A stretch of 64,000 bases of DNA from Patescibacteria group bacterium (GTDB lineage Bacteria; Patescibacteriota; Patescibacteriia; UBA9934; GWF2-40-263), in the NCBI GenBank assembly GCA_004297215.1, contig SCUM01000001.1, forward strand, positions 742,716-806,715. Reading direction: 5' to 3'. The position numbers and the translations under genes were made by a program. Positions 5,514-39,300 of this stretch are shown piece after piece. The notes beneath the pieces were generated by a model. That model made no database searches. It saw nothing but the letters and a program-made list of their open reading frames with translations, and had not been told where the DNA came from. Within the stretch, counting starts at the first letter, position 1; each line of letters begins with the position of its first letter.

Positions 5514-5545
5514 GAGATCACTACGGAAGTAGTGATTTTTGTTTT

Positions 5546-5726: not shown

Positions 5727-5757
5727 AAAGTCGCCTTGAAAGTGGCGACTTTTGTAT
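5727..5757 (+). terminator. Rho-independent terminator after the tRNA cluster
   Basis: AAGTCGCC-TTGAAAGT-GGCGACTTTTGTATTT hairpin followed by a T-run. Confidence 0.75.
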
Positions 5758-17400: not shown

Positions 17401-19933
17401 CACGGACACGATCAATCTCGCGACGAACGGGACCGCCGCGGACGTCATCGCGGTCGGCAACAGCAACGCCTCCACCACGCTTGCGCTTACGGGCGGCAAC
17501 GACTGGAGCATCAGCACGGCCGGCCTCATCACTACCGCGGGCGACGTGGCGGTGAACGGCGGGGACATCACCTCCACTGGCGCGATCACCATCACCCCGG
17601 CCTCGGGATCCAACGTTGACGTGGGACTTGCGAGCACCGGTGACTTTAACGTGAATGTCAGTGGAAGCCCGGTGTTCGTCGTCTCCGAAACGGGAGTCGT
17701 CGTCGCAGACTCGAACATTTTCGTCGGCAATGCGAGTTCGTCCAACGACGATTTCCTCTATTTCGACGGCGGGACGACCGAGTCCATCCGTTGGGATGAA
17801 ACAGGGAGCGAATTCGAGGTTTCCGACGACTGGAATATCTTGGGCAACTGCCTTGAGACGGGCGTGGCCTGCGACCTGGCGGAGACGTTCTTCGCGGATG
17901 CCGGGGAGGCGCTTGAGGCGTACGACGTGGTGGTGAGCGATGCCTCTGGAACGAAGAAGGTGAAGAAGTCGTCGATGGCGTATGATTCCGGGCTCATGGG
18001 CGCGGTGTCGCTGCAGCCGGCGATCCTCATGGAAGGCAGCTACGTGGTGGTGGGCAACGACGATGCCGTGGTGGATCCGGAGCGTCCGGCCGTGGTGCTC
18101 TCCGGCGTGGTGCGCGTGAAGGTGAGCGAGGAGAACGGGGTGCCGGCCATCGGCGACATGCTCGCCACCTCAACGGTCGCGGGGCACGCCATGAAGGCCT
18201 CGCAGCCGGGCATGGCGCTTGGCCGCATGGTGGGCGGGTATACCGCGGTCAGTCCCGGCATTGCCACGGCGCTCGTGGACGTGAAGGTGGGCTGGCACTC
18301 CGGCGGCGTGATCGCCACCGACGGCACCATGGCCACGATCAATGACGATGTCGCGTTCACGGCCACTGGCACCGCCGATGGCATTACCCAAGGTTTCGAC
18401 TCCTTCGGCCTCTCCCTTCGCGGCTCGGGCTGGGACGGCGCTGCCGCCCAGGAGCGCGCCATGAAGCTCGTGACCGACGTGACGGACGCCTCCACCTACA
18501 AGCTGTCCATCCGCAACCAGTCCGACGCCGAGGTCGCCTACATCACCGACGACGGGGTGATGAGCGTGGCTTCCGACCTGGTGGTGGGAGGAAAGCTGTA
18601 CCCCTCGGCCCTGGGAGTCGCCCAGACGGACAAGTACGTCTATTACGGAGGCTCCGGCGACGACTACATGCGCACCAACGCCTCGGGCTGGGGGACCGGT
18701 AGCTACGACTTTGCGGAAATGTTCCCCTCAAGCCTGCCTCTCGAACCTGGTGAGGTGGTGGCGTTCGATACGGTTTCCGAACAGGTGAAACGCGCCTCGG
18801 GCGAGGACCGCGCGCGCCTCGCGGGCATCGTGTCCACCAAGCCCGGGTTCGTGGCCGGCAACGTGAAGGCGGGCGACCACCCGATCGCGCTCGCGGGCCG
18901 GGTGCCCACCAAGGTGTCCCTCGAGAACGGCGACATCGCCGTGGGCGACGCGCTTACCGTATCCGAAACGCAGCCAGGCTACGCCATGAAAGCCACCGAG
19001 GCCGGCATGATCATCGGCTACGCGCTTGAACCGTTTGATGGCAGTGGGTCGGTTGATGGCAGTGGGCAGTTGGCAGTTGGCAGTGGGGAAGCGATCATCG
19101 TGTTCGTTCATCTTGGCTACTGGACCGACGGAAGTCAGCCCATGGCCGGCACGGACAACGCGGCGTCCGGCTCGGGCACCGGGAGCCTGTCGGCGCTCAA
19201 CATGACCGGCAACATCTACATGCAGGGGAACCAGATCCTGAACGTCGGCGCGATTGCCGGATTGGGCGGCATCTGGAGCGTGGACGGGGAAGGGACGTTC
19301 CGCACGGAGGCGACCTACAAGACGGTCATCACCAGCTACCAGAACGAGCAGGTGGAAACGATCGCCGTCACGAGTCCGGACGTGCAGATTACGCTTCTCG
19401 GGACCGCGGAACTCGTGAACGGGGAAGCGACCGTCTCGTTCGAGTCCGTCAATCCGTCGTTCAACGACGTCACGTCCACCACGGCCCCGGTGCGCGTGCT
19501 CGTGACACCCAACGGCCCGGTGTCGCTCTATATCGTGAGCAAGGACCACAACGGGTTCACGGTCCGTCAGGTCGGCCCTTCGACAAGCTCAGGGTCTTCG
19601 ACGGATTCGAACGTGACGTTCGACTGGATGGTGAGCGCGTTCAGGAAGGATTATGAAGTGGTTGAGTCGTTGAGTGGTGGAGTGGTTGAGGAAACGGCTC
19701 CAGCCGAGGAGACGGCTCCTTCGACGGAACCGACTGTCGAAAACCCGGCCTCGACGGACACGACGGCCACGGAACCAGCTCCGTCAGAACCCGTCCCAGA
19801 ATCGCTTCCCTCTGAACCTGTCCCAGAGTCCGCTCCCTCGGAAGAACTTCCCCCTGCCGATCCAGCTCCAGCTCCTGAAGAGCCGGCTCCTCCTGCGGAG
19901 GAACCCCCGGCTCCCACGGAACCGGCGCCTTGA
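11489..19933 (+). CDS. Giant surface protein 1 (N-terminal signal anchor, conserved head domain, GIGT-type repeats, two copies of a conserved C-terminal module, Pro/Glu-rich tail)
   Basis: 2814 aa. TM anchor FAFTALGLVMAGAVSYML. Head IIPYQGRLLNANGVPD..FRLYDS..CLWSN..LSPRKQIGAAAYA. Many xVGIGTxxP repeats. C-terminal modules with DxAExF..STKPGF..ALAGRVPTKVSLENGDIAVGD..PGYAMKA..GYALEP. PE-rich end. Confidence 0.85.
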   Translation: MLKRFKDNPDHFFRRLFAFTALGLVMAGAVSYMLTDSYLSVFAVSPPNIIPYQGRLLNANGVPDASASRDFQFRLYDSLAAGTCLWSNDDSSCASDADLAVTLTDGLFSENLGDTGAGYAAIPDSVFADDASVFLEVEVEGEVLSPRKQIGAAAYAFNADTLDGMDSASFALVDDAFVQDGNSFGATAVIGTNDTEDFAIETDGTTRMTVLSSGEVGIGTATPLDTVSILGTSGSTGIGIDDSTAGGNTYLILNHISASDSSEEILMNGDGTIGLNITNQNSGTLGTDLTDIPSSANFYTNSGNAGGLILASQHATAPMIFATGGIATGDERMRIDSAGNVGIGTTTPGETLEVSGTSYVSGHAAIGADAAVDDGSLLYPGSIFSNTLNVSERSTDASVDYVEGTTNYLLYDPSADASGIWAIALDSEAATEATNAEDVGTLSAGYFNATHNGTGDITSWMSGIEAYAFTTATGGSSVESIAGYFSLSLSDPRSSGTENNYGVWSAVSRTGATGGTINTYGVYVDDTGVGNAGAGTSTAYGLYLEDFPTADAQYSIYSEGGQSYHAGNFGIGATTPDADLDIEAAEDTERVRLTDTSNADSVGLYVGDGTAGLDGTLSAQAGSLFLDEDGKLWVNMDGATNWDQVATTAGGALDLDGAYDNDSDKKMAVDNASGLEFESSTAGNVFVDLQSTGDFVIQSVGTAFATFNDSGNVLFENSLTVGSSSADVVLFNADVDSHFIPDDDDTYDLGADAQRWRDLYLGAATLHVGSLIGDEGTISYDTGANALVVNEGGADTDFRIEGDTEANLLFLDAGNGRVGIGTASPTARVHATQSTDGGGGYVFENSNAGASAFSEVSVVSDGATGSWRSFGTGNTNLGFDSISLADSVAIGANTDATRMFVATFGTAPLLIGTNLNTSGTPPGIFIDTSNNVGIFDETPSAKLDVGGTFAVQGNSTLGNASGDTVTSNAAAWTFANDTTVALSGGVNGLNFDSNTLSIDAANNRIGIGTSTPSHLVDISAGTSTGFWPLHIAATVTDGFAGLRADITSSDTIGNNQLAGQFVLAAGATGAGYYTALDVENLAAGTGSDLKLDTSSNASLGNTGLSSLAIATTTGLNVGSYMEAANGATSVGGVGKSITAKASGTNIGVLGVGRNTSVTSPIEIGGYFGLFNSTPTFDASSGLIASNGSTTNNIFLARDNNTTVFSIVDGGSVGIGDATPDALLDVAGSFQFDGDATFGDAATDNVVFTADVNSNILPNTDDTYTLGDADQRWADIFLGPASIHIGTSATNEGVISYAAGTSLDFGTDSTTNADIAFFTDDLYLDKSTGRVGVGTAAPGYLLDVNGAIRAGTPGTDGQMRVYSEQGATDYEVVFDPNAAMTQNVTYTLPANDGDSGQFLTSDGAGALSWTTSAGSGDITAVGSMTSGDAFADSSADDDWLGLGVAAGRIEFDDLATDEVNVLGARVGVGTSAPDALVDVEGSVNGEVATYATNTNAGTAAFAAVSLVNDQGNSFRSSVYMTSSTYVGSGEGANALVLQNGVTTGPIRFMQGTTSRMLIDGSGDLSWSGNATFGDTSGDAITVNAATWTFANDTAVALSGGENGLNFDSNTLSIDATNDRVGIGTASPAAMFHATRSAPAAGAEAWAENTSATGYAAMLIVNDAGSGSRSGLQFAGSGYADTIVGNNDLALTQATANDLHFATSNTRRVTLDASGNLGIGDATPDYLLDVAGTLGVDGSVTLGDAVTDNLTVGAAIQGTSALVFDGSTDDANETTFSITNPTADNTITFQNGTGTVAFLSDIPASGDITAVGSMTSGDAFADATADDDWLGLGAAAGRIEFDDQATDEVNILSSLVGIGTSTPSAMLSVGASSQFQVDSSGNITTSGTLAVNGGIITATGSLDINSLTTTALTLDSGTTGDVNLGTGANAKAVFVGNSTGATNLTFNVGTGGINFGDNANTKTIDIGGVTSSGTDTINLATNGTAADVIAVGNSNASTTLALTGGNDWSISTAGLITTAGDVAVNGGDITSTGAITITPASGSNVDVGLASTGDFNVNVSGSPVFVVSETGVVVADSNIFVGNASSSNDDFLYFDGGTTESIRWDETGSEFEVSDDWNILGNCLETGVACDLAETFFADAGEALEAYDVVVSDASGTKKVKKSSMAYDSGLMGAVSLQPAILMEGSYVVVGNDDAVVDPERPAVVLSGVVRVKVSEENGVPAIGDMLATSTVAGHAMKASQPGMALGRMVGGYTAVSPGIATALVDVKVGWHSGGVIATDGTMATINDDVAFTATGTADGITQGFDSFGLSLRGSGWDGAAAQERAMKLVTDVTDASTYKLSIRNQSDAEVAYITDDGVMSVASDLVVGGKLYPSALGVAQTDKYVYYGGSGDDYMRTNASGWGTGSYDFAEMFPSSLPLEPGEVVAFDTVSEQVKRASGEDRARLAGIVSTKPGFVAGNVKAGDHPIALAGRVPTKVSLENGDIAVGDALTVSETQPGYAMKATEAGMIIGYALEPFDGSGSVDGSGQLAVGSGEAIIVFVHLGYWTDGSQPMAGTDNAASGSGTGSLSALNMTGNIYMQGNQILNVGAIAGLGGIWSVDGEGTFRTEATYKTVITSYQNEQVETIAVTSPDVQITLLGTAELVNGEATVSFESVNPSFNDVTSTTAPVRVLVTPNGPVSLYIVSKDHNGFTVRQVGPSTSSGSSTDSNVTFDWMVSAFRKDYEVVESLSGGVVEETAPAEETAPSTEPTVENPASTDTTATEPAPSEPVPESLPSEPVPESAPSEELPPADPAPAPEEPAPPAEEPPAPTEPAP

Positions 19934-20106: not shown

Positions 20107-23100
20107 ATGGATCTCCTCGAACGCAAGGACCACCCGCTTTGCCGCCTGATGCAGGGGGTGGTTGCGGTCGCGTTGGTGATCACCGGAGGGATCGCCTCGA
20201 CCTGGGTGATGTTCGAGGCTCTCTCCGTCTTTGCCGTCTCTCCCCCGAATATCATCTCGTACCAGGGGAGGCTCCTCAACGCCAACGGCGTGCCGGACGC
20301 TTCCGCTTCCCGCGACTTCCAGTTCCGCTTGTACGACTCGCTGGCCGCCGGCACCTGCCTGTGGAGCAATGACGACAGCTCCTGCGCCTCCGACGCCGAT
20401 TTGGCCGTGACGCTCACCGACGGATTATTCTCCGAGAACCTGGGCGACACCGGGGCCGGGTACGCCGCCATCCCGGATTCCGTGTTCGCCGATGACGCGA
20501 GCGTGTTCCTCGAGGTGGAGGTGGAAGGGGAGGTGCTTTCGCCGCGCAAGCAGATTGGCGCCGCGGCGTACGCCATGAACGCGGATACGCTGGATGGGAT
20601 CAATTCCACGAGTTTCTTCGTCCAAAATGGCAACTCCCTCGGCGCCGCGGCCGTGCTCGGGACCAATGACGGCTTCGGACTTGAGCTGGAGACGGGCGGG
20701 ACGACGCGACTGACGTTAGGGACAAGCGGCGCGATTACCGTTCCCCTTGCCGGCTCTTTCGTATTCGATGACGATGCGACCGACGGGTTGGATGACGACA
20801 TGACCCTCGAAGTCGCCGCGTCGCTGGCGTACCCCGGATTCGACGTCACCGTCATGCATCCGTCCTTCGGATTGCTTGAACTCGTGGATCCCGTGAATAG
20901 CGCCCCGGGAATCGCGTTGCACGGCGACCTCCCAGCATACGCCATCAACGTGGATAACCCTGGAGGGGCGGGGACGGCCTTCTTTCCCATGTCGTTCTTT
21001 CGCGAGGGCGCTTCAAGTTCTCCCTTCTTCTCGATGCAGACCTATCCGGATGACGACGGTTGGGCCATCTACGGACCGAGCGTCGCTGATCCCGGGGTCA
21101 TTCAGATCCTCGAAGCCGGCACGGTGAACGCCGGTGCCTATGCCGCTCGTAGCGACGCTTCGGCGATTCCGATCCTGTGCGCGTCCACGCGGGTCGAGGA
21201 GACCGCCGCGAACCTGGTCCAGGAATCATGCTTCATGGCCGACGGTTCTCTCGACCTCGGGCTCGCGCTCGCGGGCACGGACACGACCGTGGCCCAAGGC
21301 GGCATCGAGCGGTCCAGCGGATCGGACGAGACCTTCGCCTTCGCGAACCAGGGCGCGGGAGTCCTTTCTCTGACCGCGGATGGCACGGTGGACGTCTCCG
21401 GCCACGCCGCCATCGGCGCGGACGCGCTGATTGATGACGGAGGCCTCCTCTATCCCGGCTCCACCTTCTCCAACACGCTCAACGTGTCCGAGCGGAGCAC
21501 GGACGCGAGCGTGGACTACGTCGAGGGCACCACCAACTACCTCCTGTACGACCCGTCGGCGGACGCCTCAGGCATCTGGGCGATCGCCCTCGATTCCGAG
21601 GCGGCCACCGAGGCGACGAACGCCGAGGACGTCGGCACCCTGTCGGCCGGGTATTTCAACGCGACCCACAACGGGACAGGCGACATCACGAGCTGGATGT
21701 CCGGCATCGAGGCGTACGTCTACACCACTGCGACCGGCGGGAGTTCGATCTCGAACATCGGCGGGTATTTCTCGGTCACCGCCCAGGACCCGCGCGCCAC
21801 AGGCACCGAAGACAACTACGGCGTGTGGTCGGCCGTGCACCGCACCGGCGCCACGGGCGGCACCATCAACACGTATGGCATGTACGTGGACAACGACGGC
21901 GTGGACGCGGCCGGGGCCGGTACCTCCACCCTCTACGGACTGTTCCTCGAGAGCATGACCGGCGCGGACACCAACTATTCCATCTACTCCGCGGGCGGCC
22001 AGAGCTACCATGCCGGCAACTTCGGGATCGGGGCGACCACTCCGGACGCCGACCTCGACATCGAGGCCGCGGAGGACACGGAGCGCGTGAGGCTCACCGA
22101 CTCGAGCAACGCCGACTCCGTGGGATTGTACGTGGGCGACGGCACCGCCGGGCTCGACGGCACCCTTTCGGCCCAGGCCGGCTCCCTCTTCCTCGACGAG
22201 GACGGGAAGCTGTGGGTGAACATGGACGGGGCGACCAACTGGGACCAGGTGGCCACCACGGCCGGCGGGGGGACGGACCTCGACGGGGTGTACGACAACG
22301 ATTCGGACAAGAAGATGGCCGTGGACAACGCCTCGGGCCTCGAGTTCGAGAGCACCACCGCGGGCAACGTGTTCGTGGACCTGCAAAGCTCGGGCGACTT
22401 CGTGATCCAGTCGGTTGGCACCGCCTTCGCCACCTTCAACGACTCCGGCAACGTCAGTTTCGAGAACTCGCTCACGGTCGGTTCGAGCTCCGCCGACGTG
22501 GTGCTGTTCAACGCCGACGTGGACAGCCATTTTCTCCCCGACGACGACGACACCTACGACCTGGGCGCCGACGCCCAGCGCTGGAGGGACCTCTACCTCG
22601 GGGCCGCGACCTTGCACGTCGGTTCTCTTATCGGCGACGAAGGGACGCTCTCGTATGACAGCACGCCAAACGACTTCAATTTCGCAAATGGCGGCGCCAC
22701 GCGGATGACCATCCAAAGCGACGGCGACGTGGGAATCGGGGATTCGATGACCTCGCCCACCGCCCAGCTGCACATCAAGCAGACCGCCGCCGAGGACGCC
22801 CTGCGCGTGGACGACGAGGCGGCCGGCACCACCTATTTCGTGGTGGACGACGGCGGCAACGTGGGCATCGGGGTCACCTCCGGCCCGTCCTCCACGCTGC
22901 ACGTGGTGGGCGATACGCGCATCGGCGCCACGGATTACGTCACCATGGCGCAGGACGGCGGCGGGTTCTACGTGGAGCAGATCGGGAGTTCCGACGCGCT
23001 GCGCCCGATTCGCCTGCAGTCGCGCAACGCGGCGACCCAGTACAGCCAGTTCTTCGTGGACCCGGTGAACGGGTTCCAGTTCCTCATCAACGCCACCGGC

Positions 23101-26100
23101 GCCAACAACAACGTGGGCATCGCGGATTCCACGCCGGACAACCTGCTCGACATCCTCTCCGGTTCCGACGCCGCCCTCGCGCTTACCTCGACGGGCACGG
23201 ACACGGACCCGCTCATCAAGTTCGAGCTTGCCGACGGCACGCCTACCTTCACCTTGGGCGTGGACGATTCGGATTCGGACAAGTTCAAGATCTCCACCAC
23301 GGCGCTTGGCACGAGCGACCGCCTGGTCATCGACTCGTCCGGCTTCGTGGGCATTGGCACCTCGACGCCGGACGCGGCGTTCGACGTGGAAGCGGCCGTG
23401 GACGCCAACGGGGCGAATGTCCTGTTCGAAGCCAACGACTCGGGGGTGTCCGGCAGCTACTTCCGCATCGCCGACGGCACCGAGGCGGACACGCATTTCG
23501 TCCCCTACATCATGACGAAGGGGATCGGCACCGGGGCGGCGGACCGCGCCGGGCTGATCATCGACGCGCAGCCGGGCGAGGACGGGAGCGACGACGTCGC
23601 GGTGATCGTCGACGCGCATCTTTCCGGCGCGGCGCTCACGAGCGCGCACCTGTTCGAGGTGCGAAACGACGCGACGCCGCTGCTGCGCGTCGCAGCCAAC
23701 GGCAACCTCGTCTCGTTCGGTTCCGTCGGCATCGGGACGGGAACGCCCGGGGCCAGCCTCGACGTGGATCCCGCCAACGTCGTGGGCGGCGGCACCTCCG
23801 AGCAACCCTCGATCCTCGGATCGAACCAGGTGATTGCGCTTGCCGACGGGACGACCCGGGCGAATCAGCGCCAGTTCAAGTTCCTCGCGCCGACCCTGAA
23901 CGGGGTCGCGGGCGGAGGCACCGAAACGGTCACGGACGCGGCCACCTTCTACGTCTCCGACGCCCCGTCGGGTTCGGACATCACCTTCACCAACGGCCCG
24001 TACGCCCTGTGGGTGGATGCCGGGACGGCGCGGTTCGACGGGGACGCCATCGTGGGCGGCAGCACGTCGATCACGGAGACCCTCGCGAACGCCGGATTCT
24101 CGATTGGCGGCGACGACCTGTTCGTGGCCGGCACCGCGGGCGTGGAAGGGAACGTGTACACGGACGGGTCGTTCATCGCGGGCGCCACCCTCACGCTCGC
24201 GGATTCCGGCATCACCGAGAGCGGCGCGTTCACCTTCACCTCCCAGCTCGCCGCCGGCGGCACCACCTCTTCCGCCTACAACCTGGTCACGAGCAACGAC
24301 CTCGGTTCCGCCGACGAAGTGCTCCAGATCGGTGACTCGACAGGCACCTTCGCGACCGTCCTTGGGAACGGCAACGTCGGGATTGGAGAAGTCGACCCGG
24401 CCACGATCCTACACGTTTCCGGCACCCAGGCTCGCGTCACCATCGAGGACACGGGAAAGGGGACGGGGCCGGCCGTGCTTGGGCACGATTCCGGCATGTT
24501 GTTTCTCGAGAACAACGGCATACGCGTCATCTCCATCAACGACTCCGGCGGTTCCACGGGATTCGGCGACCAGAGCCCGAACGCCATCGTGGAAGTCGAC
24601 CAGGCCGGCGGCAGCGTCGACCCATTCCTCATCTCGAGCAACAACGGCGTGGACGGCGACCTGTTCAACGTGCAGGACGGAGGCGCCGTGGGCGTGGGCG
24701 ACGTTTCTCCGGACGCCAGGTTCGACATTGACGACGGCGCCGCGACCGGGACGATCGTGGGGGTGCTCTCGAACGCCGGGACGCAGGCCGGATCCTTGAT
24801 CGGCCTTTCGCTCGACTTCGACTCGTCGCTCGCCGGCGCCGCCAACCTGGACTTCACCGGCGTGAGGCTCCTCACCCCCAATCTCACGCAATCCACCGCG
24901 GATACCACCGACTACCTCGGGTACGACCTGGCGGCTGGCGCCATCACCCAGGACACGCTTGCCGGGACGATCAATTGGACCGGCGCGCGCATCGCCATGC
25001 CCGTGCAGGTGCAGACCACCGGCATCGTGAACACGAGCGGGCTCACGGTCACGGACAACGGGTCGAGCAACAGCGGGGTGAAGCGCGGATTGTTCGTGGA
25101 TTTCAGCGGCATCCAAAGCGGCGGGACCCTGGTGGGCCTTGACGTGGACAGCATCACAACCGGCGGCGGCAACGGGCTTGGCGTGCGCATCGGGTCCGGG
25201 TTCGACACGGATCTCCAGTTTGTGAACGCCGCCGCCGTCATCCGCGTTCCCAACGCGGGCACGCTCGACTTCCAGGACGCCTCGGAGAACTCCCTCATGC
25301 TGCTTACGGACGCGGGAAGCACGAGCACCCTCGACGTGAACGGCTCCATCCGCGCCGGGACGCCTGGCACGGACGGCCAGTTCCGCCTCTACTCCGAGCA
25401 GGGAGCCACGGACTACGAGGTCGCGTTCAACCCGCATGCGGCCATGACGCAGGCCACCGCCTACACCCTTCCGGCGGACGACGGCGGATCCGGCCAATTG
25501 CTCACCACCGACGGGTCCGGCGCGCTCTCTTGGTCAACCGCCGCTTCGGGCGACATCACGGCCGTGGGCTCCATGACCTCCGGCGACGCCTTCGCGGACT
25601 CCACGGCCGACGACGACTGGCTCGGCCTTGGCGCCAGCGCCGGCCGCATCGAGTTCGATGACCAGGCCACGGACGAGGTGAACATCCTCGGCGCGAACGT
25701 CGGCATTGGCACCTCGACGCCTGGTTCAACCATCGACGCCACGTCCCCGGCGACCCTCACCACGGCCTATCAGCTCCTGGCCGATTCGGTGACGGACGGG
25801 ACGGGATTGGAACTGTCCCTCGACAGCCTGAACGAGGGTTACGGCCTGCTCGTAACGAGCACGGCAGATGCGGATTACGGGTCTGACCTGGCCGGATTCC
25901 AGCAGTTCGCCGTGTCCACGGGTACCGCGACCATGGACGGGAACGTGGAGAGGATCGTTCAGAACCTGGACTCCAGTACCACGGGGACCCTCACGGTGAG
26001 CGGCAACGCGATGCGGATCCAGCGCGCGGTGAACGCCAACAGCGGCACGACCCTGGACGCGACGGGCGCGGTCATGCGTATCAGCGACCAGACCGGCGCC

Positions 26101-27555
26101 GGGACAGGGACCCTCAACTCGAGCTCGGACGTGCTTTCCCTCACCCAATTCATCACGACGAACAGCGGCGACGCGTTGGGCATCCTGCACCAGGGCACAG
26201 GCATCGGGGCCCACATCACCATGAGCACCGTGAGCGCCCCCGCATCCGGTTCCGTGGGCAACCAGGCCTTGGTGCTCGACACCAATGAGACGCAGAGCAA
26301 CGACGACATGTTCATCATCCGCTCCGACGCCGACGGCACTCCGGACACGGAGTTCATCTTCGAGGCCGACGGGGATGCCGTGGCCGACGGCAGCTTCACC
26401 GGCGGCGGGGCCGACTACGCCGAGTACTACCGTGTTTCCGACCAAGGGATTGAGGCCGGCGACGTCGTCTGCCTCGACCAGGAGAACCCTGGCGACGTCA
26501 CTCGCTGCTCCGCTTCCGCCCCTGTCCCCACCGGCGTCATCTCCACCAAGCCCGGGTTCCTCGCCAATGGCCAGGGCAGGGACGTGGCGGCCGACCCCTC
26601 GTTCAAGCCGGTCGGCCTGATGGGTCAGGTCCCGACGAAGGTCAGCCTTGAGAACGGCGACATCGCGGTCGGCGACCCCGTCGTCGCTTCCGTGACCGCT
26701 CCGGGACGCGCCATGAAGGCCGTCGAGGCCGGCCAGATCGTCGGCTACGCGCTCGAGCCCCATACCAGCCAGTCTCCTGACGCGGAGATCCTCGTATACG
26801 TGCGCCCTGGATACCACGCGGCACTCTCCTCCCAGACCGCCGCCGGCACCGACAACCGGGCTTCGGAGATCCCGTCCTCGGGCCTCACCGCGCTCAACAT
26901 GAGCGGCAACATCTACATGGCGGGCAACGGAATCCTCGACGTTGGCGCGATTGAGGGCATCGGCGCGCGCTGGTCGGTCGACGCCGATGGGAAATTCGCA
27001 ACCCAGGCTTCCTACGACGTGGTCATCAAGAGCTACCAGGACGAGGACGTGACCGTGCACGCGGTGCTCGGGCGCGAACACAAGGTGACGCTCGACGGCA
27101 CAGCGACCCTCGAGAACGGGGTCGCGACGGTCGCGTTCGAGACGGTCGACCCGCTCTTCAACGACATCACGTCGACGACGGCCGACATCCGCGTGTCCGT
27201 GACCCCCAACGGCCCCGCCTACCTCTATGTCGTCTCGAAGGACCACAACGGGTTCACGGTGCAGCAGTTGAACGGCAGCGACTCGGGCATCACCTTCGAC
27301 TGGTTCGTGAGCGCGTATCGGAAGGACTATGAGCCGGAGGTGATTGAGGTTGTTGAGGTGACGGAGGAGATGCCGGTCGAGGAATCGGTCCCGACCGAAG
27401 GACCCGTGCCGGAACCGGTCGTCGAAGAACCTGCACCTATCCAGGAGACGGCTCCCGTGACCGACCCGGCACCGACCGAGCCTGCTTCGACGGATTCGCC
27501 ACTGGTTGAAGAACCGGCGCCAGAACCGCCCCCGACAGATGAAACCCCGACATAG
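20107..27555 (+). CDS. Giant surface protein 2 (tandem paralog of giant 1)
   Basis: 2482 aa. The first ~135 aa after the TM and a ~1.3-kb internal block are near-identical to giant 1 at DNA level (20237-20610 vs 11617-11990; 21385-22650 vs 12560-13830). One C-terminal conserved module (26400-26780), conserved C-terminal domain, PE-rich tail. Confidence 0.85.
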   Translation: MDLLERKDHPLCRLMQGVVAVALVITGGIASTWVMFEALSVFAVSPPNIISYQGRLLNANGVPDASASRDFQFRLYDSLAAGTCLWSNDDSSCASDADLAVTLTDGLFSENLGDTGAGYAAIPDSVFADDASVFLEVEVEGEVLSPRKQIGAAAYAMNADTLDGINSTSFFVQNGNSLGAAAVLGTNDGFGLELETGGTTRLTLGTSGAITVPLAGSFVFDDDATDGLDDDMTLEVAASLAYPGFDVTVMHPSFGLLELVDPVNSAPGIALHGDLPAYAINVDNPGGAGTAFFPMSFFREGASSSPFFSMQTYPDDDGWAIYGPSVADPGVIQILEAGTVNAGAYAARSDASAIPILCASTRVEETAANLVQESCFMADGSLDLGLALAGTDTTVAQGGIERSSGSDETFAFANQGAGVLSLTADGTVDVSGHAAIGADALIDDGGLLYPGSTFSNTLNVSERSTDASVDYVEGTTNYLLYDPSADASGIWAIALDSEAATEATNAEDVGTLSAGYFNATHNGTGDITSWMSGIEAYVYTTATGGSSISNIGGYFSVTAQDPRATGTEDNYGVWSAVHRTGATGGTINTYGMYVDNDGVDAAGAGTSTLYGLFLESMTGADTNYSIYSAGGQSYHAGNFGIGATTPDADLDIEAAEDTERVRLTDSSNADSVGLYVGDGTAGLDGTLSAQAGSLFLDEDGKLWVNMDGATNWDQVATTAGGGTDLDGVYDNDSDKKMAVDNASGLEFESTTAGNVFVDLQSSGDFVIQSVGTAFATFNDSGNVSFENSLTVGSSSADVVLFNADVDSHFLPDDDDTYDLGADAQRWRDLYLGAATLHVGSLIGDEGTLSYDSTPNDFNFANGGATRMTIQSDGDVGIGDSMTSPTAQLHIKQTAAEDALRVDDEAAGTTYFVVDDGGNVGIGVTSGPSSTLHVVGDTRIGATDYVTMAQDGGGFYVEQIGSSDALRPIRLQSRNAATQYSQFFVDPVNGFQFLINATGANNNVGIADSTPDNLLDILSGSDAALALTSTGTDTDPLIKFELADGTPTFTLGVDDSDSDKFKISTTALGTSDRLVIDSSGFVGIGTSTPDAAFDVEAAVDANGANVLFEANDSGVSGSYFRIADGTEADTHFVPYIMTKGIGTGAADRAGLIIDAQPGEDGSDDVAVIVDAHLSGAALTSAHLFEVRNDATPLLRVAANGNLVSFGSVGIGTGTPGASLDVDPANVVGGGTSEQPSILGSNQVIALADGTTRANQRQFKFLAPTLNGVAGGGTETVTDAATFYVSDAPSGSDITFTNGPYALWVDAGTARFDGDAIVGGSTSITETLANAGFSIGGDDLFVAGTAGVEGNVYTDGSFIAGATLTLADSGITESGAFTFTSQLAAGGTTSSAYNLVTSNDLGSADEVLQIGDSTGTFATVLGNGNVGIGEVDPATILHVSGTQARVTIEDTGKGTGPAVLGHDSGMLFLENNGIRVISINDSGGSTGFGDQSPNAIVEVDQAGGSVDPFLISSNNGVDGDLFNVQDGGAVGVGDVSPDARFDIDDGAATGTIVGVLSNAGTQAGSLIGLSLDFDSSLAGAANLDFTGVRLLTPNLTQSTADTTDYLGYDLAAGAITQDTLAGTINWTGARIAMPVQVQTTGIVNTSGLTVTDNGSSNSGVKRGLFVDFSGIQSGGTLVGLDVDSITTGGGNGLGVRIGSGFDTDLQFVNAAAVIRVPNAGTLDFQDASENSLMLLTDAGSTSTLDVNGSIRAGTPGTDGQFRLYSEQGATDYEVAFNPHAAMTQATAYTLPADDGGSGQLLTTDGSGALSWSTAASGDITAVGSMTSGDAFADSTADDDWLGLGASAGRIEFDDQATDEVNILGANVGIGTSTPGSTIDATSPATLTTAYQLLADSVTDGTGLELSLDSLNEGYGLLVTSTADADYGSDLAGFQQFAVSTGTATMDGNVERIVQNLDSSTTGTLTVSGNAMRIQRAVNANSGTTLDATGAVMRISDQTGAGTGTLNSSSDVLSLTQFITTNSGDALGILHQGTGIGAHITMSTVSAPASGSVGNQALVLDTNETQSNDDMFIIRSDADGTPDTEFIFEADGDAVADGSFTGGGADYAEYYRVSDQGIEAGDVVCLDQENPGDVTRCSASAPVPTGVISTKPGFLANGQGRDVAADPSFKPVGLMGQVPTKVSLENGDIAVGDPVVASVTAPGRAMKAVEAGQIVGYALEPHTSQSPDAEILVYVRPGYHAALSSQTAAGTDNRASEIPSSGLTALNMSGNIYMAGNGILDVGAIEGIGARWSVDADGKFATQASYDVVIKSYQDEDVTVHAVLGREHKVTLDGTATLENGVATVAFETVDPLFNDITSTTADIRVSVTPNGPAYLYVVSKDHNGFTVQQLNGSDSGITFDWFVSAYRKDYEPEVIEVVEVTEEMPVEESVPTEGPVPEPVVEEPAPIQETAPVTDPAPTEPASTDSPLVEEPAPEPPPTDETPT

Positions 27556-27575
27556 CGTCGGGGTTTTGCTATACT

Positions 27576-29969
27576 GTGGGGACTATGACGCGCTCCTCCG
27601 ACCTGTACCTGCGCCTCGCGCGCGGGTTCCTGTATGTCCTGCTCGGGCTGTTGCCGCTGTTCTATCTCCCCGTGAGCCTGGAGCCCTTGGAGGTGAACAA
27701 GCAGACACTGCTCGTGCTGCTCACTTCCGCCTCGGCGCTCGCGTGGATCGGATCCATGGTGAGCGCGCGCGCCGTGTCCGTGCGCCGCGGGTGGGTGAAC
27801 CTGCTGCCCGTGCCGCTCGTCGCCTTCACGCTCCTTTCCGCGGCGTTTTCCTCGGGCCCGTACCTTTCCTGGGTGGGAACCGCGGGACAGGAATACATGA
27901 GCGCGCTCTCGGTGCTTGCGTACGCGCTGCTGTGGTTCTTGTGCGCCAACCTGCTCGCGCTTCCCGCGCATAGGCGCACGGCCTTTGCCGTGCTGCTTGG
28001 CTCCGGCGCGTTCGCCGGGATCCTGGGCATCCTCGGGATCCTGGGCGTGCGCGCGCTCCCCATCCCCGGCGGGATGCTGGGCAACACCGTGGGGAGCCCC
28101 AACGCCTTCGGGATGTACCTCGCCTCGGTCGCCGCGCTCGCCTGCGCCCTGTTCCTCGTGCACCGGGAGTCCGACGCGGTCATGTACCGGGGCCGCAAGG
28201 GCGCGTTCCAGCACGCCGCCATCTTCCTTGCCTGCGCCGTCGCATTTCTCGCGCTCATGCTGGTGGATTATGCGCCGGTGTGGGCCGCGCTTGAAGCGGG
28301 CGTGCTCGCGCTGTTCGCCCTTTCCATGGCGCGCGCCAAGGACATCGGCCCGGGGAACCGGTTCACGCTCCCGTTCCTCCTGCTGGTATCGAGCGTCCCG
28401 TTCCTGCTCGTGTTCGACCGGCCGCTGCCCGCGAAGATCCCCACCGAGGTCACGCCCGACGCCTCCTCCTCATGGGCGGTGGCGCGCGAGACGCTTTCCC
28501 ATGACGGCGCCTTGCTGGGTTCCGGCCCCGGCACCTTCGTGTACCAGTACGGCCGTTACCGTCCGGAGGAGGTGAACAAGACCGCCTTCTGGAACACGCG
28601 GTTCGACCGCGCGAGCAGCTTCGCGTTCACCGTGCTGCCCACCTTCGGCGTGCTCGGGACGCTCGGCTGGGCCGTCGCGCTCTTGGGCTCGCTCGCCTGC
28701 GGCATCGGCGCGTTCCTGCGCGCGCGCGAACGGGAACGCCTGGTCGCGCCCTTCGTGCTCGTCCCGCCGCTTGCCGCGCTCCTCATCGCCCTGTGCCTGT
28801 ACGGCGGCACCCTCACGCTGCTTACGCTGTGCTTCGCGCTCTCGGGGCTCGTCTGCGGCGCCGCGATGCGCGAGGGCCGCGCCGACCTCGACCGCGCCCC
28901 GCGCCTCTCGCTCGCGCTCTCGGCCCTGTTGGTGCTCGCGGCCACGGCCATCGCCACGGGGCTGTTCGGGAGCCTCATCCGGTACGCCTCGGAGGCCGCG
29001 TTCGCGCATGCCGTGCGCCTTGACCGCGCCGACGCCCCCATGAAGGAGATCGTGGCAAGCCTCGACCGCGCCGCGAGCCTCAACCGCTGGAACGACGTGT
29101 TCTACCGCAACCTCGCGCAGGCGTTCCTGCTCATGACCGGCGAGGAGATCAAGGCGCTTTCCGGCGCCGCGACCCCCATGACCGACGAGCAGCGCGCCTA
29201 CGTGCAGGCGCTCACGGGCGCGGCCGTGAACGCGGGGGTGCGCGCCACCGAGCTCGGGCCCGACAACGCGCTCAACTGGCTCGCGCGCGGGGCGCTCTAC
29301 CGCGAGTTCATCCCGCTCATCGGGAACGCCGGCGAGCACGCGGTGGAAGCCTACCAGCGGGCGATCGCGCTCGAACCCCTCGACCCGGAGAACCGCACCG
29401 AGCTCGGGAAGGCGTTCCTCACGCTCGCCGAGAACAACCGCGCGCTCACGGCCGCCGAGGACAAGGCCGTGGCCGACGAGGCGCTCGCCAAGGTGGCGGG
29501 GTACCTGAAGCAGGCCGAGGAGCAGTTTGACAAGGCGATCGCTCTCAAGGCCGATTACGCCCCGGCGCACTACCAGCTCGGCCTCATCTACGAACGCCAG
29601 GGGAAGATCGGCGAGGCCGTGGGAAAGATGGAATCCGTGTCGCAGTACAACCCGCTCGACGTGGGCGTGTTCTTCCAGCTCGGGATGCTCTACCTGCGCC
29701 GCGGCAGCGAGGGCGACCAGGACCGCGCGGAAAAGGCGTTCCTTTCGGCGATCGCGCTTTCCCCGAGCTATAGCAACGCGCGCTGGTTCCTGGCGAGCAT
29801 CTACGAGCAGAAGCGCGACCTGCCCAAGGCCATCGAGCAGGTGGGGAAGGTGCTCGAATACAACCCGGACAACCAGCTCGTGAAAGCGAAGCTCGACCGC
29901 CTCAAGGCCGGCAAGGTAAGTTCCACCACTCCGGTCCCGCTCACCGACCCCGCGCCCGCGACGCCATGA
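27576..29969 (+). CDS. Polytopic membrane protein with Wzy_C/O-antigen-ligase-like core and C-terminal TPR repeats
   Basis: 797 aa. About 10-12 predicted TM helices over the first 440 aa, including a GSGPGTFVYQY..loop motif reminiscent of the O-antigen ligase family. C-terminal 350 aa are TPR-like (AIALEPLDPEN.., AIALKADYAPAHYQLGLIYERQGK.., AIALSPSYSNARWFLASIYEQ..). Confidence 0.6.
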   Translation: MGTMTRSSDLYLRLARGFLYVLLGLLPLFYLPVSLEPLEVNKQTLLVLLTSASALAWIGSMVSARAVSVRRGWVNLLPVPLVAFTLLSAAFSSGPYLSWVGTAGQEYMSALSVLAYALLWFLCANLLALPAHRRTAFAVLLGSGAFAGILGILGILGVRALPIPGGMLGNTVGSPNAFGMYLASVAALACALFLVHRESDAVMYRGRKGAFQHAAIFLACAVAFLALMLVDYAPVWAALEAGVLALFALSMARAKDIGPGNRFTLPFLLLVSSVPFLLVFDRPLPAKIPTEVTPDASSSWAVARETLSHDGALLGSGPGTFVYQYGRYRPEEVNKTAFWNTRFDRASSFAFTVLPTFGVLGTLGWAVALLGSLACGIGAFLRARERERLVAPFVLVPPLAALLIALCLYGGTLTLLTLCFALSGLVCGAAMREGRADLDRAPRLSLALSALLVLAATAIATGLFGSLIRYASEAAFAHAVRLDRADAPMKEIVASLDRAASLNRWNDVFYRNLAQAFLLMTGEEIKALSGAATPMTDEQRAYVQALTGAAVNAGVRATELGPDNALNWLARGALYREFIPLIGNAGEHAVEAYQRAIALEPLDPENRTELGKAFLTLAENNRALTAAEDKAVADEALAKVAGYLKQAEEQFDKAIALKADYAPAHYQLGLIYERQGKIGEAVGKMESVSQYNPLDVGVFFQLGMLYLRRGSEGDQDRAEKAFLSAIALSPSYSNARWFLASIYEQKRDLPKAIEQVGKVLEYNPDNQLVKAKLDRLKAGKVSSTTPVPLTDPAPATP

Positions 29970-30203: not shown

Positions 30204-31277
30204 ATGCTCAAAGTCGGCATCGTGGGGCTTCCGAACGTCGGCAAGTCCACCCTGTTCAAGACGCTCACCAAGAAGCAGGTTCCCTGCGAGAATTTCCCGT
30301 TCTGCACGATCGAGCCCAACGTGGGGATCGTGGAAGTTCCCGACGCGCGGCTCGCGGCGCTTGCCAAGGCGTCGAACACGGCGAAGATCATCTCGGCGGC
30401 GATCGAGTTCGTGGATATCGCGGGAATCGTGAAGGGGGCGAGCAAGGGGGAAGGGCTTGGCAACAAGTTCCTCACCAACATCCGCGAGACGGACATGATC
30501 TTGCACGTGGTGCGCGCGTTTGCGGACCCGAACGTCCACCACGTGGACGGGGCCGTGGACCCTAAGCGAGACGTGGAGACGATCGAGACCGAGCTCGCGC
30601 TCGCGGACATCGAGCTGGTCCAGAAGCGCCTCGACGGGGTGCGCGGCAAGATGAAGTCCGGGCGCACCAAGGAGCTTGAGAAAGAGGAGTCGGCGCTCGC
30701 CAAACTGTTTGCCGCGCTCGAGCAGGGGAGGATGGCCAACGCCGTCGAGCTCGACGAAGATGAGGAAAAAGCGGTGAAAGGGCTGCTATTGCTCACGCGC
30801 AAGCCCATCCTCTTTGTCTTGAACGTTGATGAGAAAGCGGCGGCGGATTCGTCCTGGACGAGCCCGCTCGGTCCGGAGCGCCTGTCCATTCCCATCAGCG
30901 TGAAGATCGAGAGCGAGATCATGGAGATGCCGGTCGAGGACCAAAAGGCCTTCCTGACCGAACTCGGATTGTCGATGAGCGGCCTCGACCGCGTGATCGC
31001 CAAGTGCTACTCGATGCTCGGGCTCATCACCTACTTCACGTCAGGGGAGAAAGAGACGCGCGCCTGGACGATCCCCGTGGGGACGAAGGCCCCGCAGGCG
31101 GCCGGCGTGATCCACACCGATTTCGAAAAGAATTTCATCCGAGCCGAGGTCACCGATTGGAAGGATTTCGTCGCGCTCGGCGAAAGCGGCGCGCGCGACG
31201 CGGGAAAACTCCGCATCGAAGGGAAGGACTACGTGATGCGCGACGGGGACACGTGTCATTTCCGGGTGGGGGGATAG
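30204..31277 (+). CDS. ychF: Ribosome-binding ATPase YchF
   Basis: 357 aa. [18 protein letters not shown].., G-motifs, TGS domain C-terminus ..[18 protein letters not shown]. Confidence 0.95.
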
Positions 31278-33428: not shown

Positions 33429-33517
33429 AGTGCGTAGTGCGTAGTTGGTAGTACGTAGGAAAGAAAATCTACGCACTACGAACTACGTACTACGAACTAC
33501 GTACTACGCACTACGCA
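33429..33517. repeat. Hairpin built from ACTACGY heptamer arrays (left flank of the four-helix-bundle gene)
   Basis: AGTGCGTAGTGCGTAGTTGGTAGTACGTAGG..loop..CTACGCACTACGAACTACGTACTACGAACTACGTACTACGCACTACGCA. Confidence 0.8.
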
Positions 33518-33532
33518 AACATATGAACAACG

Positions 33533-33888
33533 AAAAAACGGGTTCGTACCAAGACTTGATCGTGTGGCAGAAGGCCATGGATCTTGTGGTCGGTGTTTAT
33601 GAGATTACAAAAGATTTTCCTACAGATGAGCGGTATGGGATCGTGAGTCAGATGAGACGTTCCGCCGTGTCTATCCCGTCGAACATTGCGGAGGGATATA
33701 GGCGAAAAAGCGAGGTGGATTTTCAAAGATTCCTCCGGATCGCCTATGGCTCAGCGTCTGAACTCGAAACACAGCTCCTCATTGCGCAACGGTTACGATA
33801 CGGGCCAGCAAGCTTTGCCCGAACGGATGCTCTCCTGGAAGAAATTCTGAAAATGTTAAACAAGATGACGGAAGGGAAGAGTTCGTAG
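33533..33888 (+). CDS. Four-helix-bundle protein (23S rRNA intervening-sequence protein family)
   Basis: MNNEKTGSYQDLIVWQKAMDLVVGVYEITKDFPTDERYGIVSQMRRSAVSIPSNIAEGYRRKS..FLRIAYGSASELETQLLIAQRL matches the TIGR02436-type family. The annotated upstream start lies inside the hairpin repeat. Confidence 0.8.
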
Positions 33889-36341: not shown

Positions 36342-39300
36342 GTGAGTTCCCACGTCCGCCCCGTGTCACGAGCGTCTCGTGGCATGAGGCGGGTGGATTC
36401 CACCCGAACTTTGCACGCCCCCATGCTTGTCGTGCAGCCAGACAAATCCCTCATCCGAAGAGTAAGCGCGAGCGAGCCGTTCGCGCTCGTTGTGGTTTTC
36501 CTCATGATGATTTCCGGGTTCAGCGTGTGGATGCTGCTGTCGCGCGCGCCCGGGGCGGTCGCGACGCTCGACACGCCGATGCTCATCACCTATCAGGGGA
36601 AGCTCACCAACGCGAGCCGCATCACGGTGCCGGACTCGGCGCTCAACATGAAGTTCGCGATCTACACCTCGAGCTCCGGCGCCTCCGGCTGCGTGTGGAG
36701 CGCGGGCGACGACCCGGGCGACGGCGCGGACACTACCTTCTCGCAATCAAGCGACTGTCCGAGCCATGTCCCGTCGACCGCGATTTCCGTGACGCCCAGC
36801 GAAGGGGTGGTCACGGTGATCCTCGGCGCCTCCCCGCAAAACGCCATCCCCGATGCGCTGTTCGACGACAACTCCGCCCTGTACCTCGGCGTCACCGTGG
36901 GGGCTGACAGCGAAATGACTCCGAGGATCCGCCTCACCGCCACGCCCTACGCCTTCCAGGCCGGCGACGCGGACCTGCTCGACGGCCTCGATTCCACGGC
37001 GTTCGCCACCACGAGCACCGCGTTCGTGAACAACGGCAATTCCTTCGCCGCCGCCGGGGTGATCGGCACCAACGACGCGAACTCGCTCTCGTTTGAGACG
37101 AACAACGTTACCTATCTCACCATCGCCTCCGGCGGCGGCTTCACGCTTCCCGTGGACACCGACTGGACGCTCACGGGCGGCACGAACGGGTTGAGCCTCG
37201 ACGGCACCACCTTCTCCGTGGACGCCGCCAACAACCGCATCGGCATCGGCACCGCGGCCCCGAGCCAGACCCTCACGGTGGTCGGCACCGGCGACGTGTC
37301 CGGCCACGTGGCCATCGGCGACGACGCCGCGATCAACGACGCGTCGCTCCTCTATGGCGCATCGACCATCACGAACGTCCTTACCGTCTCCGAGGAGATG
37401 ACGGACGGCGCCTCGGACTACGTGGACGGCATCACCAACCACATCCTGTACAACCCGTCCACCGACGCCTCAACCACGTGGGTCGACGGCATGGACACGG
37501 TCGTGGAGACGGCCGCGGCAAACGCGCAGGACATCGACGTGATCGATGCCGGATATTTCGGGACCACCCATAACGGCACGGGCGACATCGTGGGCTGGCT
37601 CAACGGCGTCTCGGGGGTCGTCAGCACGACGGCGACGAGCGGGAGTTCTATTTCGAACAACGCCGGGTATTTCGCGGTCACCGCGATCGACCCCCGCGCC
37701 ACCGGTACCGAGGACAACTACGGCTTGTGGTCGGCCGTGAGCCGCACCGGCGCCACGGGCGGCACCATCAACACCTACGGCGTGTACGTGCAAAGCAACG
37801 GCATGGACGCTGCCGGCGCCGGTACCTCCACCCTCTACGGCCTCTATATAGAGAGCATGACAGGGGCCGACACCAACTACGCCATCTACTCCGCCGGCGG
37901 CCAGAGCTACCACGCGGGGAACTTCGGGATCGGCGACGCCTCTCCCGCCTCCCTCCTCACCGTGGGCTCGGGCGACCTGTTCCAGGTGACCTCCGCGGGG
38001 AGGATCATCACGACCGTGACCCCCACGGCCGACTCGGGGACCACCAACAACGCGGCGTTCGTGATGCTCACCACCCCGGCGGACACCACCGGCACGAACG
38101 TGCACAACGCCCTGCGCGTGGACGGGAACGTGGGCAACGCCACCGGAGGCACCAACACCGTCAATCTCCTCGAGTTCGACGCTCTGACCGGCGACGCCCA
38201 AGTGACCCTGCGCGGCATCGACATCGGCGCGCTCACCGGCACCGCCGCCACGGAGGACGCCATCCTGGTCGGAAGCGGTTGGGACTGCACGTTCAAGGTG
38301 GGCTCCACCTGCGTGATCGATGGCTCCGGCACGCTCGGTTCCAGCGGCAACGCCTTCGTGAACGGGGGCAACTCCTTCGGCGCCAGCGCCATCCTCGGGA
38401 CGAACGACGCCAACTCCCTTTCGTTTGAGACCAACAACACCACCTACCTCACCATCGCCTCCGGCGGAGGATTCACCCTCCCCGTGGACACCGACTGGAC
38501 GCTCACGGGCGGGGAGAACGGGTTCTCCATCGACGGCACCACCTTCTCGGTGGATGGCTCGGCCAACCGCGTGGGCATCGGCGACGCCACCCCCGACGCG
38601 CTGCTCGACGTGGGCGGGGACGCGTTCATCGACAACGACCTCGTGGTGGGTGCCGCGACCTCGACCACCGAGACGCTCGCGAACGCCGGGTTCAGCTTGA
38701 GCAACGACGACCTATTCGTCTCTGACTCCATCGGCGCCGAGGGCAACGTCTACACCGACGGCTCCTTCATCGCGGGTGCCACCCTCACGCTCGCCGACTC
38801 CGGCATCACCGAGTCGGGTGCCTTCACCTTCACCTCGCAGCTCGCCGCGGGCGGCACTACTTCTTCCGCCTTCAACCTTGTCTCGAGCAACGACCTGGGC
38901 GCATCCGACGAGGTGCTCCAGATCGGCGACTCGGCCGCCACCTTCATGACCGTGCTCGGGAACGGCAGCGTGGGGATCGGGACGGTGAGTCCGTCAGTGA
39001 TTTTAGATATCGCGAAAGTGGGTTCGGGAAGTACCGCGGCCCAAGTGACCATTTCCGGGTATGCGAATGACGCTTCCAGCGGGGCATACATGAACTGGCA
39101 AAAATCACGCGGAACGTCCGTCGGTTCTTTGGTCACGACCGATAGCGGAGATTATCTCGGGGTGATGGGATGGGCGGGCGTTACTTCTTCCAACACGAGC
39201 AGTTATGGCGCGAGGATCCTCGTGCAGCAAGATGCCGCGGCATCAGCGACGCAAGTACCCGGCGCCTTCATCATCAGGACGAGCGATGCCAGCGCCGAGT

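Follow-up and report, generated by a model that had tools for sequence, protein, structure and literature searches.

The stretch of DNA analysed here (the window) covers 64,000 nucleotides of contig SCUM01000001.1 from a Patescibacteria group bacterium (assembly GCA_004297215.1, positions 742,716 to 806,715 of the forward strand) and contains, directly behind two genes for giant surface proteins, a plus-strand gene whose product combines a polytopic membrane domain with tetratricopeptide repeats (TPRs). We refer to this gene and its product as TM-TPR (TM for transmembrane). The open reading frame (ORF) is present in the ORF list of the window at 27576..29969 (+), precisely where the original prediction had put it. 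It can start at a GTG (27576), yet the likely start codon is the ATG at 27585, which defines a gene at 27585..29969 and a product of 794 aa that is identical to the NCBI entry 'hypothetical protein EPO34_03870 [Patescibacteria group bacterium]' (P0001), located on an 842-kb contig. The genes are ordered as follows: a protein of 1154 aa with fn3 and CarboxypepD_reg domains according to Pfam (7865..11329, +), giant 1 (2814 aa; 11489..19933, +), giant 2 (2482 aa; 20107..27555, +), the TM-TPR gene and the gene encoding the GTPase YchF (30204..31277, +), which a comparison of gene neighbourhoods identified as the usual downstream neighbour across the clade. The distance to giant 2 is 20 nt for the GTG start, as noted before, and 29 nt for the ATG start. 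The data presented below indicate that the TM-TPR protein probably modifies or assembles the giant surface fibres by a chemistry other than the textbook one.

The membrane domain (aa 1-461; 27585..28967, +) was modelled by AlphaFold2 with 13 TM helices (pLDDT 89.4, pTM 0.91), i.e. a 12-TM core of the O-antigen-ligase type (GT-C_B), delineated with the help of Foldseek and hhalign, plus an additional helix TM13 (aa 439-461). The protein is thus indeed a polytopic membrane protein, though with 13 helices in the models and not the 10-12 that had been predicted. The full-length model scored similarly (pLDDT 90.5, pTM 0.87). TM13 brings the C-terminus of the protein to the outside of the cell, and lysines and arginines are found at 21 of the 79 positions in predicted cytoplasmic loops versus 10 of the 132 positions in outside loops (positive-inside count); in the resulting model the N-terminus is predicted to be cytoplasmic and the TPR domain extracytoplasmic. 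Two short beta-strands (aa 63-68 and aa 429-434) are each located in a predicted cytoplasmic loop. The TPR domain (aa 462-775; 28968..29909, +) is delimited by the Pfam TPR models, the full-length AlphaFold2 model and the topology argument. All Pfam matches to such repeats (TPR_11 at 7e-16, TPR_17 at 2e-13 and TPR_2 at 9e-12) fall within the C-terminal third of the protein, and the model has 15 helices at aa 462-774, which correspond to about 7 repeats instead of the 8 or so initially counted, followed by a short Pro/Thr tail. The large extracytoplasmic loop between TM9 and TM10 (aa 276-345; 28410..28619, +) bears most of the residues that are conserved in the family, as judged from alignments of 25 and 186 members, namely E288, G312-S-G-P-G-T317, R326, N331-x-T333, W336 and F340. 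It includes the GSGPGTF motif (aa 312-318; 28518..28538, +) that had already been recognized in the original prediction, and which aligns with the corresponding GxGPGTF loop of genuine Wzy_C proteins (consensus LLGxGPGTF) and of the O-antigen ligase WaaL with PDB entry 7TPG (TGVGVGQF).

The membrane domain did not match the Pfam model for Wzy_C (PF04932, gathering score 31.7 bits), neither with the full protein at E<=1 nor with aa 1-500 at E<=10. When the whole protein and aa 1-500 were compared with Pfam and NCBIfam, TPR matches were all that was obtained, and in a scan of 35 homologues Wzy_C was outside the 25 most often matched Pfam families. Taken literally, the lack of a profile match contradicts the predicted membership of the Wzy_C family, but deeper tests reverse that outcome. 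A homologue search with aa 1-500 as query recovered 49 relatives, nearly all of which have a length of 700-860 aa and carry TPR repeats, and which belong to Patescibacteria wherever a taxon is given. Only one of the 49, P0022, has a precomputed PF04932 match (41.8 bits versus the cut-off of 31.7, profile positions 3-148 of 149), and this protein is a clear member of the family (E 1.8e-128 versus the family profile). When the profile of a 25-sequence alignment of the membrane domain (A2) was compared with a large protein collection, the tail of the matches (P0054-P0065, E 3e-16 to 8e-4) consisted exclusively of PF04932 proteins, some of them named 'O-antigen ligase family protein'. The hhalign comparison of A2 with an alignment of canonical Wzy_C proteins (A3) gave a probability of 99.8% (E 6.5e-29) over 471 columns that run from TM1 into the first TPR helices, and the A3 profile in turn matches the WaaL structure 7TPG at 1.1e-21 and the oligosaccharyltransferase structure 9RMK at 1.2e-17. 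Direct searches of the PDB sequences were uninformative, as A2 found nothing and the full-length family profile (A1) was flooded by TPR proteins, and the link to 7TPG was therefore drawn via the bridging Wzy_C sequences. At the level of structure, the top Foldseek match in the PDB was WaaL (7tpg_B; E 1.2e-5, TM-score 0.49/0.60), with FtsW and RodA as the next ones, and the model displays the hallmarks of the GT-C_B fold, i.e. a core of 10-12 TM helices and a large extracytoplasmic loop ahead of the last three helices. Because of this combination of profile-profile homology and fold matches, we conclude that the membrane domain does belong to the O-antigen ligase/SEDS/Wzy structural class (GT-C_B, CAZy clan GT-C1; for the classification see PMC10920833), though as a very distant member. 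The family claim of the original prediction thus holds on the basis of hhalign, Foldseek and P0022, albeit without the direct PF04932 match. Two other identities were rejected: the Foldseek matches to VMAT, MFS transporters, pyrophosphatase and GPCRs (TM-score 0.1-0.15) are noise with respect to an MFS or other transporter, and for a GT-C_A enzyme of the PMT/TMTC type the best PMT match (9i5k, Pmt4) reached only a probability of 0.30 and a TM-score of 0.25, with no PMT or DUF1736 Pfam match to the full protein (E<=1) or to aa 1-500 (E<=10).

The histidine and the two arginines that define catalysis in WaaL were mapped through the hhalign columns, with the common GxGPGTF motif and the next helix, ending in GxxG, as anchors, and the resulting positions were examined in an alignment of 186 members, built from a profile search of 1.84 billion representatives. 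The distance from the GxGPGTF motif to the position of the histidine is 32 residues in the window protein and 33 in the canonical proteins. The equivalent of R191 in CmWaaL, the first arginine that binds undecaprenyl pyrophosphate (Und-PP; 'SRG' motif), is Ala230 (28272..28274, +), in a column that is mostly Trp or Phe (W78/F20/...). The equivalent of R265, the second Und-PP-binding arginine (the invariant R262 in A3), is Ser294 (28464..28466, +; column K37/S36/G27/Q26/A19/R15), and the equivalent of the catalytic H313 is Ser344 (28614..28616, +; column S56/A34/K13/I13/N13/T11/H3), where hhalign pairs 'ass' with 'AHn'. The search for the Arg and His residues of WaaL and PglL thus ended in Ala, Ser and Ser, and the suspicion that the histidine is substituted was justified, Ser344 being part of the sequence RFDRASS. 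The histidine is essential in the characterised ligases and O-oligosaccharyltransferases (O-OTases). A histidine is found in its column in 3 of the 186 members, and the full Arg-Arg-His triad in 0 of 186; even P0022, despite passing the Pfam threshold, does not have the three canonical residues. Among the canonical relatives (A3) little or no variation is seen at these three positions, which align to the respective residues in 7TPG, whose roles are summarised in PMC10920833.

Other residues are conserved throughout the family, and these comprise K39 (181/186), S89, G98, N167, G170, W233, E288 (159/186), G312-[ST]-G-P-x-T317, K/R/H326 (181/186), N331 (176/186), [TS]333, W336, F340 and G355. From the positions that are conserved in at least 85% of the members, 14 out of 17 are located in extracytoplasmic loops and none in cytoplasmic loops, for which reason the conservation looks like that of a preserved site at the outer face rather than like decay. 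Lys39 (27699..27701, +) is the only near-invariant basic residue; it sits at the outer end of TM2, in a 'PK' that is shared with the canonical relatives in which Wzy_C is fused to TPRs. Glu288 (28446..28448, +) is a family-specific acidic residue in the outer loop, found in both the 25- and the 186-member alignment, and is a candidate for the replacement of the catalytic base. In the closer Uhrbacteria clade F340-D341-R342 is invariant, with D341 three residues ahead of the lost histidine. From these patterns we infer that K39, E288, R326 and N331 may together form an active site. In other GT-C1 families the histidine is replaced by Asp or Glu, or a Glu elsewhere is used (PMC10920833). The tripeptide at aa 331-333 (28575..28583), in the outer loop, has the form of an N-glycosylation sequon (N-x-[TS]), with Asn in 176 and Thr or Ser in 163 of the 186 members.

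The family is large. The family profile recovered 3,782 representatives of clusters made at 50% identity at E<=1e-30, which implies at least 3,782 such clusters, and 13,214 representatives at E<=1e-10, where ordinary Wzy_C proteins are included. Where the sources name the organism, the hosts are always Patescibacteria (Uhrbacteria, Moranbacteria, Taylorbacteria, Niyogibacteria and Parcubacteria), and the family is apparently restricted to this group (also known as Candidate Phyla Radiation or CPR bacteria). To quantify the conservation of the genomic context we scanned loci from one genome per species, using a closer alignment (A4), and obtained 80 loci, essentially all from Uhrbacteria; synteny was counted in the 57 loci whose upstream sequence extended over at least 3.5 kb. 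In 46 of these 57 loci (81%), which represent distinct Uhrbacteria species, the same strand carries a homologue of the C-terminal module of the giants whose end is less than 3 kb upstream, and an ORF of at least 1000 aa occupies that upstream position in 44 of the 57. In Uhrbacteria no other neighbour is linked to such giants as consistently as the TM-TPR gene. The loci L009 and L003 have the same module, with orthologous giants and an orthologue of the 1154-aa gene, even though their TM-TPR proteins are just 34-38% identical to that of the window; the 1154-aa gene is the first gene of this conserved module and has orthologues in the same position in L009, L003 and many Uhrbacteria loci.

Many Uhrbacteria genomes have two TM-TPR paralogues, at different contigs or sites (e.g. 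L016/L058, L019/L061, L038/L060 and L042/L071), with identities to the window protein of about 40-47% for one and about 34-37% for the other (loci L010-L089). The second paralogue also follows a giant, of a different C-terminal family ('EFNWIAIGV...'), which suggests that the TM-TPR paralogues and their giants are co-duplicated cognate pairs. Among the distant members, P0020 is immediately followed by a relative of the 1154-aa gene and P0025 has a giant 3.5 kb upstream. As a giant homologue lies directly upstream in so many of the loci, a functional link between the TM-TPR gene and the giants is well supported in Uhrbacteria; outside Uhrbacteria it is unproven. Within the window, giant 2 is the likely partner or substrate of the TM-TPR protein.

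The giants share a common organization, that is, an N-terminal TM anchor, a conserved N-terminal region and a C-terminal module that ends in '...FDWxVxAYRKxYEP', which is followed by a disordered tail of 60-100 aa that is acidic and Pro-rich and only sometimes Ser/Thr-rich. Giants 1 and 2 are paralogues according to their sequence comparison, and giant 2 has the anchor, the conserved C-terminal module and an acidic Pro-rich tail. Their content of Ser plus Thr is 18.8-22.5%, i.e. elevated and not 'extreme' as was thought before. They have no sequence match in the PDB and none in Pfam, and NCBIfam provides only a sub-threshold match, which relates the N-terminal region to the N-domain of the Bdellovibrio mosaic-adhesive-trimer fibres (NF053851). 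In this region, within the N-terminal 120 codons or so, giants 1 and 2 differ by 1 residue over about 80 aa (SVFAVSPPNII[P/S]YQGRLLNANG...GAGYA) while being about 65% identical elsewhere, which suggests recent gene conversion or duplication.

Comparison with characterised systems shows which features of the TM-TPR protein are shared and which are its own. WaaL (PF04932, CAZy GT121, 7TPG) has the same 12-TM GT-C_B core with a large outer loop between TM9 and TM10, in which GxGxGxF is followed by a helix that ends in GxxG, and it is the best fold match, with profile-profile homology via the bridging sequences; in contrast to WaaL, the window protein lacks a direct hidden Markov model match, has R191, R265 and H313 replaced, and has the additional TM13 and an outward TPR domain. 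Patescibacteria are generally described as organisms without outer membrane or lipopolysaccharides. The O-OTases PglL, TfpO (PilO) and PglS (Wzy_C family; 9RMK) belong to the same superfamily, and the gene tfpO immediately follows the acceptor gene pilA like the TM-TPR gene follows the giants. Likewise, the PglS gene adjoins its acceptor gene comP. Unlike the TM-TPR protein these enzymes retain the His and Arg residues; they lack a TPR domain and use pilins or general periplasmic proteins as acceptors. The combination of a polytopic glycosyltransferase core with a C-terminal extracytoplasmic or luminal TPR domain, which is thought to engage the acceptor, is found in TfpW, the arabinosyltransferase of group IV pilins in P. 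aeruginosa, and in the eukaryotic TMTC1-4. Those proteins, however, are GT-C_A enzymes (ArnT-PMT-like) with a DDX/DE motif that use polyprenyl-monophosphate sugars, whereas the model of the window protein matches WaaL and SEDS. Both tfpO and tfpW sit directly downstream of pilA, and TfpW, a GT-C enzyme, has a TPR domain in the periplasm (bioRxiv 10.1101/2020.04.19.049825). The arrangement of TfpO, PglS and TfpW, in which the gene of the enzyme is kept immediately behind that of the acceptor, is the one encountered in the 46 Uhrbacteria loci, where the giants would by analogy be the acceptors. Finally, the canonical fusions of Wzy_C and TPRs (e.g. P0054 and P0055) have the same domain order, the 'PK' lysine and the GPGTF motif, but keep the invariant Arg and His, in place of which the family in Patescibacteria has E288, N331-x-T and W336-x-x-x-F340. 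A literature search for this TM-TPR family in CPR bacteria found nothing specific.

The reading that we prefer, with slightly less than even confidence, is that the TM-TPR protein is dedicated to the giants, as a rewired glycosyltransferase of proteins or as a factor for their maturation. The protein would act upon the giants at the outer face of the cytoplasmic membrane, with the TPR domain holding the giant after its export, possibly at the C-terminal tail, which is disordered, acidic and Pro/Thr-rich, and the ligase-like groove presenting a polyprenyl-linked group for transfer, in analogy to TfpO and TfpW, which are encoded behind their pilin substrates. In the rewired active site K39 and K/R326 are candidates for phosphate binding, and the base could be E288, with the invariant D341 as an alternative in the Uhrbacteria clade. 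Of the original prediction, the superfamily, the TPR fusion and the link to the giants are supported and the canonical chemistry is not, given the missing triad; we present glycosylation of the giants as a hypothesis, since it rests on analogy and gene neighbourhood. In any case the protein should not be filed as WaaL- or PglL-type, because the Arg-Arg-His set is gone.

Several observations weigh against this dedicated role. The three residues that define catalysis and Und-PP binding in WaaL are, judging from the alignment, gone family-wide, no arginine is conserved throughout the family, and D341 occurs in just 48% of the 186 members. That K39, E288 and R326 would cluster around the pocket known from WaaL is deduced from the topology. 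The link to the giants is patchy outside Uhrbacteria, where the upstream gene can for instance encode a Ser/Thr kinase (P0007) or be gyrB (P0036). The tails of the giants are not consistently Ser/Thr-rich, some being nearly pure Glu or Asp, and the 64-kb window contains no gene for a glycosyltransferase, an initiating phosphoglycosyltransferase or a flippase. Furthermore, the TM-TPR gene is separated from giant 2 by a terminator-like hairpin and a promoter-like site. The hairpin (AAACCCCGAC-ATAGC-GTCGGGGTTTT; 27542..27567, +; RNA fold) spans the stop codon of giant 2 and combines a folding energy of -29.6 kcal/mol (z -4.1; none of 200 shuffled sequences folded equally well) with a T-run. The promoter-like site (27547..27575, +) is a consensus match only, of the sigma-70 type (CCGACA-17-TATACT) with a TG before the -10 box (extended -10), and it ends just before the start codon, so that the TM-TPR mRNA could be leaderless or nearly so. 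The earlier assertion that both genes belong to the same transcription unit is consequently not established, co-transcription by read-through being possible.

The alternative that survives best, as a possible though rather unlikely explanation, is that the protein is a non-catalytic descendant of the ligases (a pseudo-enzyme), the core of which binds lipid or serves as an anchor while the TPR domain chaperones, docks or anchors the giant fibres in their secretion, folding or trimerisation, for instance as a clamp on the acidic C-terminal tails. The absence of the Arg-Arg-His set from every family member, the acidic, disordered and often Ser/Thr-poor tails, the strong synteny with the giants and the lack of glycan-donor genes in the window are all in line with such a role, and TPR domains commonly bind extended acidic peptides. 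It is countered by the 14 near-invariant positions at the outer face (among them the GSGPGT loop, K39, E288, N331 and W336) that were kept across thousands of lineages, which suggests that a small-molecule or catalytic site has been preserved rather than a mere anchor, and by the activity of other GT-C1 families that have Asp or Glu in place of the His (PMC10920833).

We consider it unlikely that the protein is a housekeeping enzyme of the envelope, such as a Wzy-like polymerase or a ligase of wall glycopolymers onto peptidoglycan or lipid, and that the adjacency of the giants reflects conserved gene order near ychF and rpsF-ssb-rpsR. Such a function would suit the very wide occurrence of the family in Patescibacteria, its usual neighbourhood of core genes (ychF, rpsF-ssb-rpsR, and FtsW/RodA in Moranbacteria-like loci), the distant members without adjacent giants and the position of the SEDS proteins as next-best fold matches. 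It is at odds with the second paralogue, which, elsewhere in the genome, also follows a giant of a different family, with the relative of the 1154-aa gene next to P0020, and with the outward-facing TPR domain, which argues for a protein partner. A canonical O-OTase of the O-antigen-ligase/PglL type, transferring an Und-PP-linked glycan en bloc onto Ser/Thr residues of the giants, is very improbable, for its superfamily homology and fold, the common GxGPGTF loop and the location directly behind a putative acceptor gene (like tfpO behind pilA) are offset by the unmatched PF04932 and, above all, by the replacement of R191, R265 and H313 by Ala, Ser and Ser in columns that are not conserved in the family, a residue test that largely refutes it.

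A wider reading is that a phylum-wide family of Patescibacteria has lost the two Und-PP-binding arginines and the catalytic histidine and has repurposed the O-antigen-ligase fold, as a protein-modifying enzyme with a donor and chemistry of its own or as a lipid-coupled machine for assembly or anchoring, that works in cognate pairs with giant host-attachment fibres, a genome having two paralogues that each follow a giant family of their own; this wider claim is tentative, and we regard it as rather doubtful in its full extent. If true, a biogenesis factor dedicated to the giant surface proteins of the CPR episymbionts would have been identified for the first time. These tiny bacteria are presumed to make contact with their hosts by means of such proteins, and the TM-TPR family is a candidate handle on their biogenesis. 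The family also represents a natural experiment in GT-C_B enzymes, as the fold and the pocket at the outer face were kept and the textbook Arg-Arg-His is gone: if active, it widens the catalytic repertoire of the ligase/SEDS/Wzy clan, and if inactive, it constitutes a large pseudo-enzyme family with a structural role. At present these proteins are carried only as 'TPR protein' or 'hypothetical' and are missed by the Pfam Wzy_C model, an annotation gap that requires profile and fold methods to be closed.

A number of further features were observed in the window and at related loci. A second giant cluster is formed by giant 3 (4299 aa; 36342..49241, +), a paralogue of giants 1 and 2, a secreted Ig/fn3-like protein of 857 aa (49910..52483, +) and a CarboxypepD_reg protein of 316 aa (52487..53437, +). 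Taken together, the latter two look like the 1154-aa gene split into two parts, and within the window the cluster is not followed by a TM-TPR gene; the 857-aa ORF had been considered as a second TM-TPR gene and was rejected as such, being the secreted Ig/fn3-like protein and not a paralogue. At L003 a gene of the FGE-sulfatase family (formylglycine-generating-enzyme-like; 8890..9867, -), which is also found at L004, is inserted, on the opposite strand, between the giant and the TM-TPR gene and is another potential protein-modifying enzyme of the neighbourhood. The locus with a Uhrbacteria-type giant, TM-TPR gene and ychF was also found in many metagenome-assembled genomes titled 'uncultured Gammaproteobacteria bacterium' (L011-L014, L020, L021 and others), and these labels look wrong.

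Just upstream of the 1154-aa gene are two ORFs of about 300 aa each (6078..6983 and 6985..7863, +). The first has sub-threshold NCBIfam matches to the CPR-type pilus tip protein PamT (56 bits versus a cut-off of 240) and to the Pam pilin C domain, and the second has a weak match to the 'choice-of-anchor D' domain. The giant cluster may thus adjoin a Pam-like donor-strand pilus module (bioRxiv 10.64898/2026.03.03.709456). The possibility that the TM-TPR protein is itself a component of the Pam pilus was discarded, as the paper on this pilus in CPR bacteria describes no TPR or ligase-like component. Downstream of ychF, an ORF at 33445..33888 (+) matches the Pfam family 23S_rRNA_IVP (1.4e-39) and is weakly bAvd-like, i.e. 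it relates to a family of four-helix bundles to which accessory proteins of diversity-generating retroelements belong; the neighbouring ORFs that were tested included no reverse transcriptase. The GC content around this ORF is low (0.57 at 32-34 kb versus about 0.66), and a further drop, to 0.50 versus about 0.65 elsewhere, occurs at 4001-6000, around rmuC (4004..5116, minus strand).

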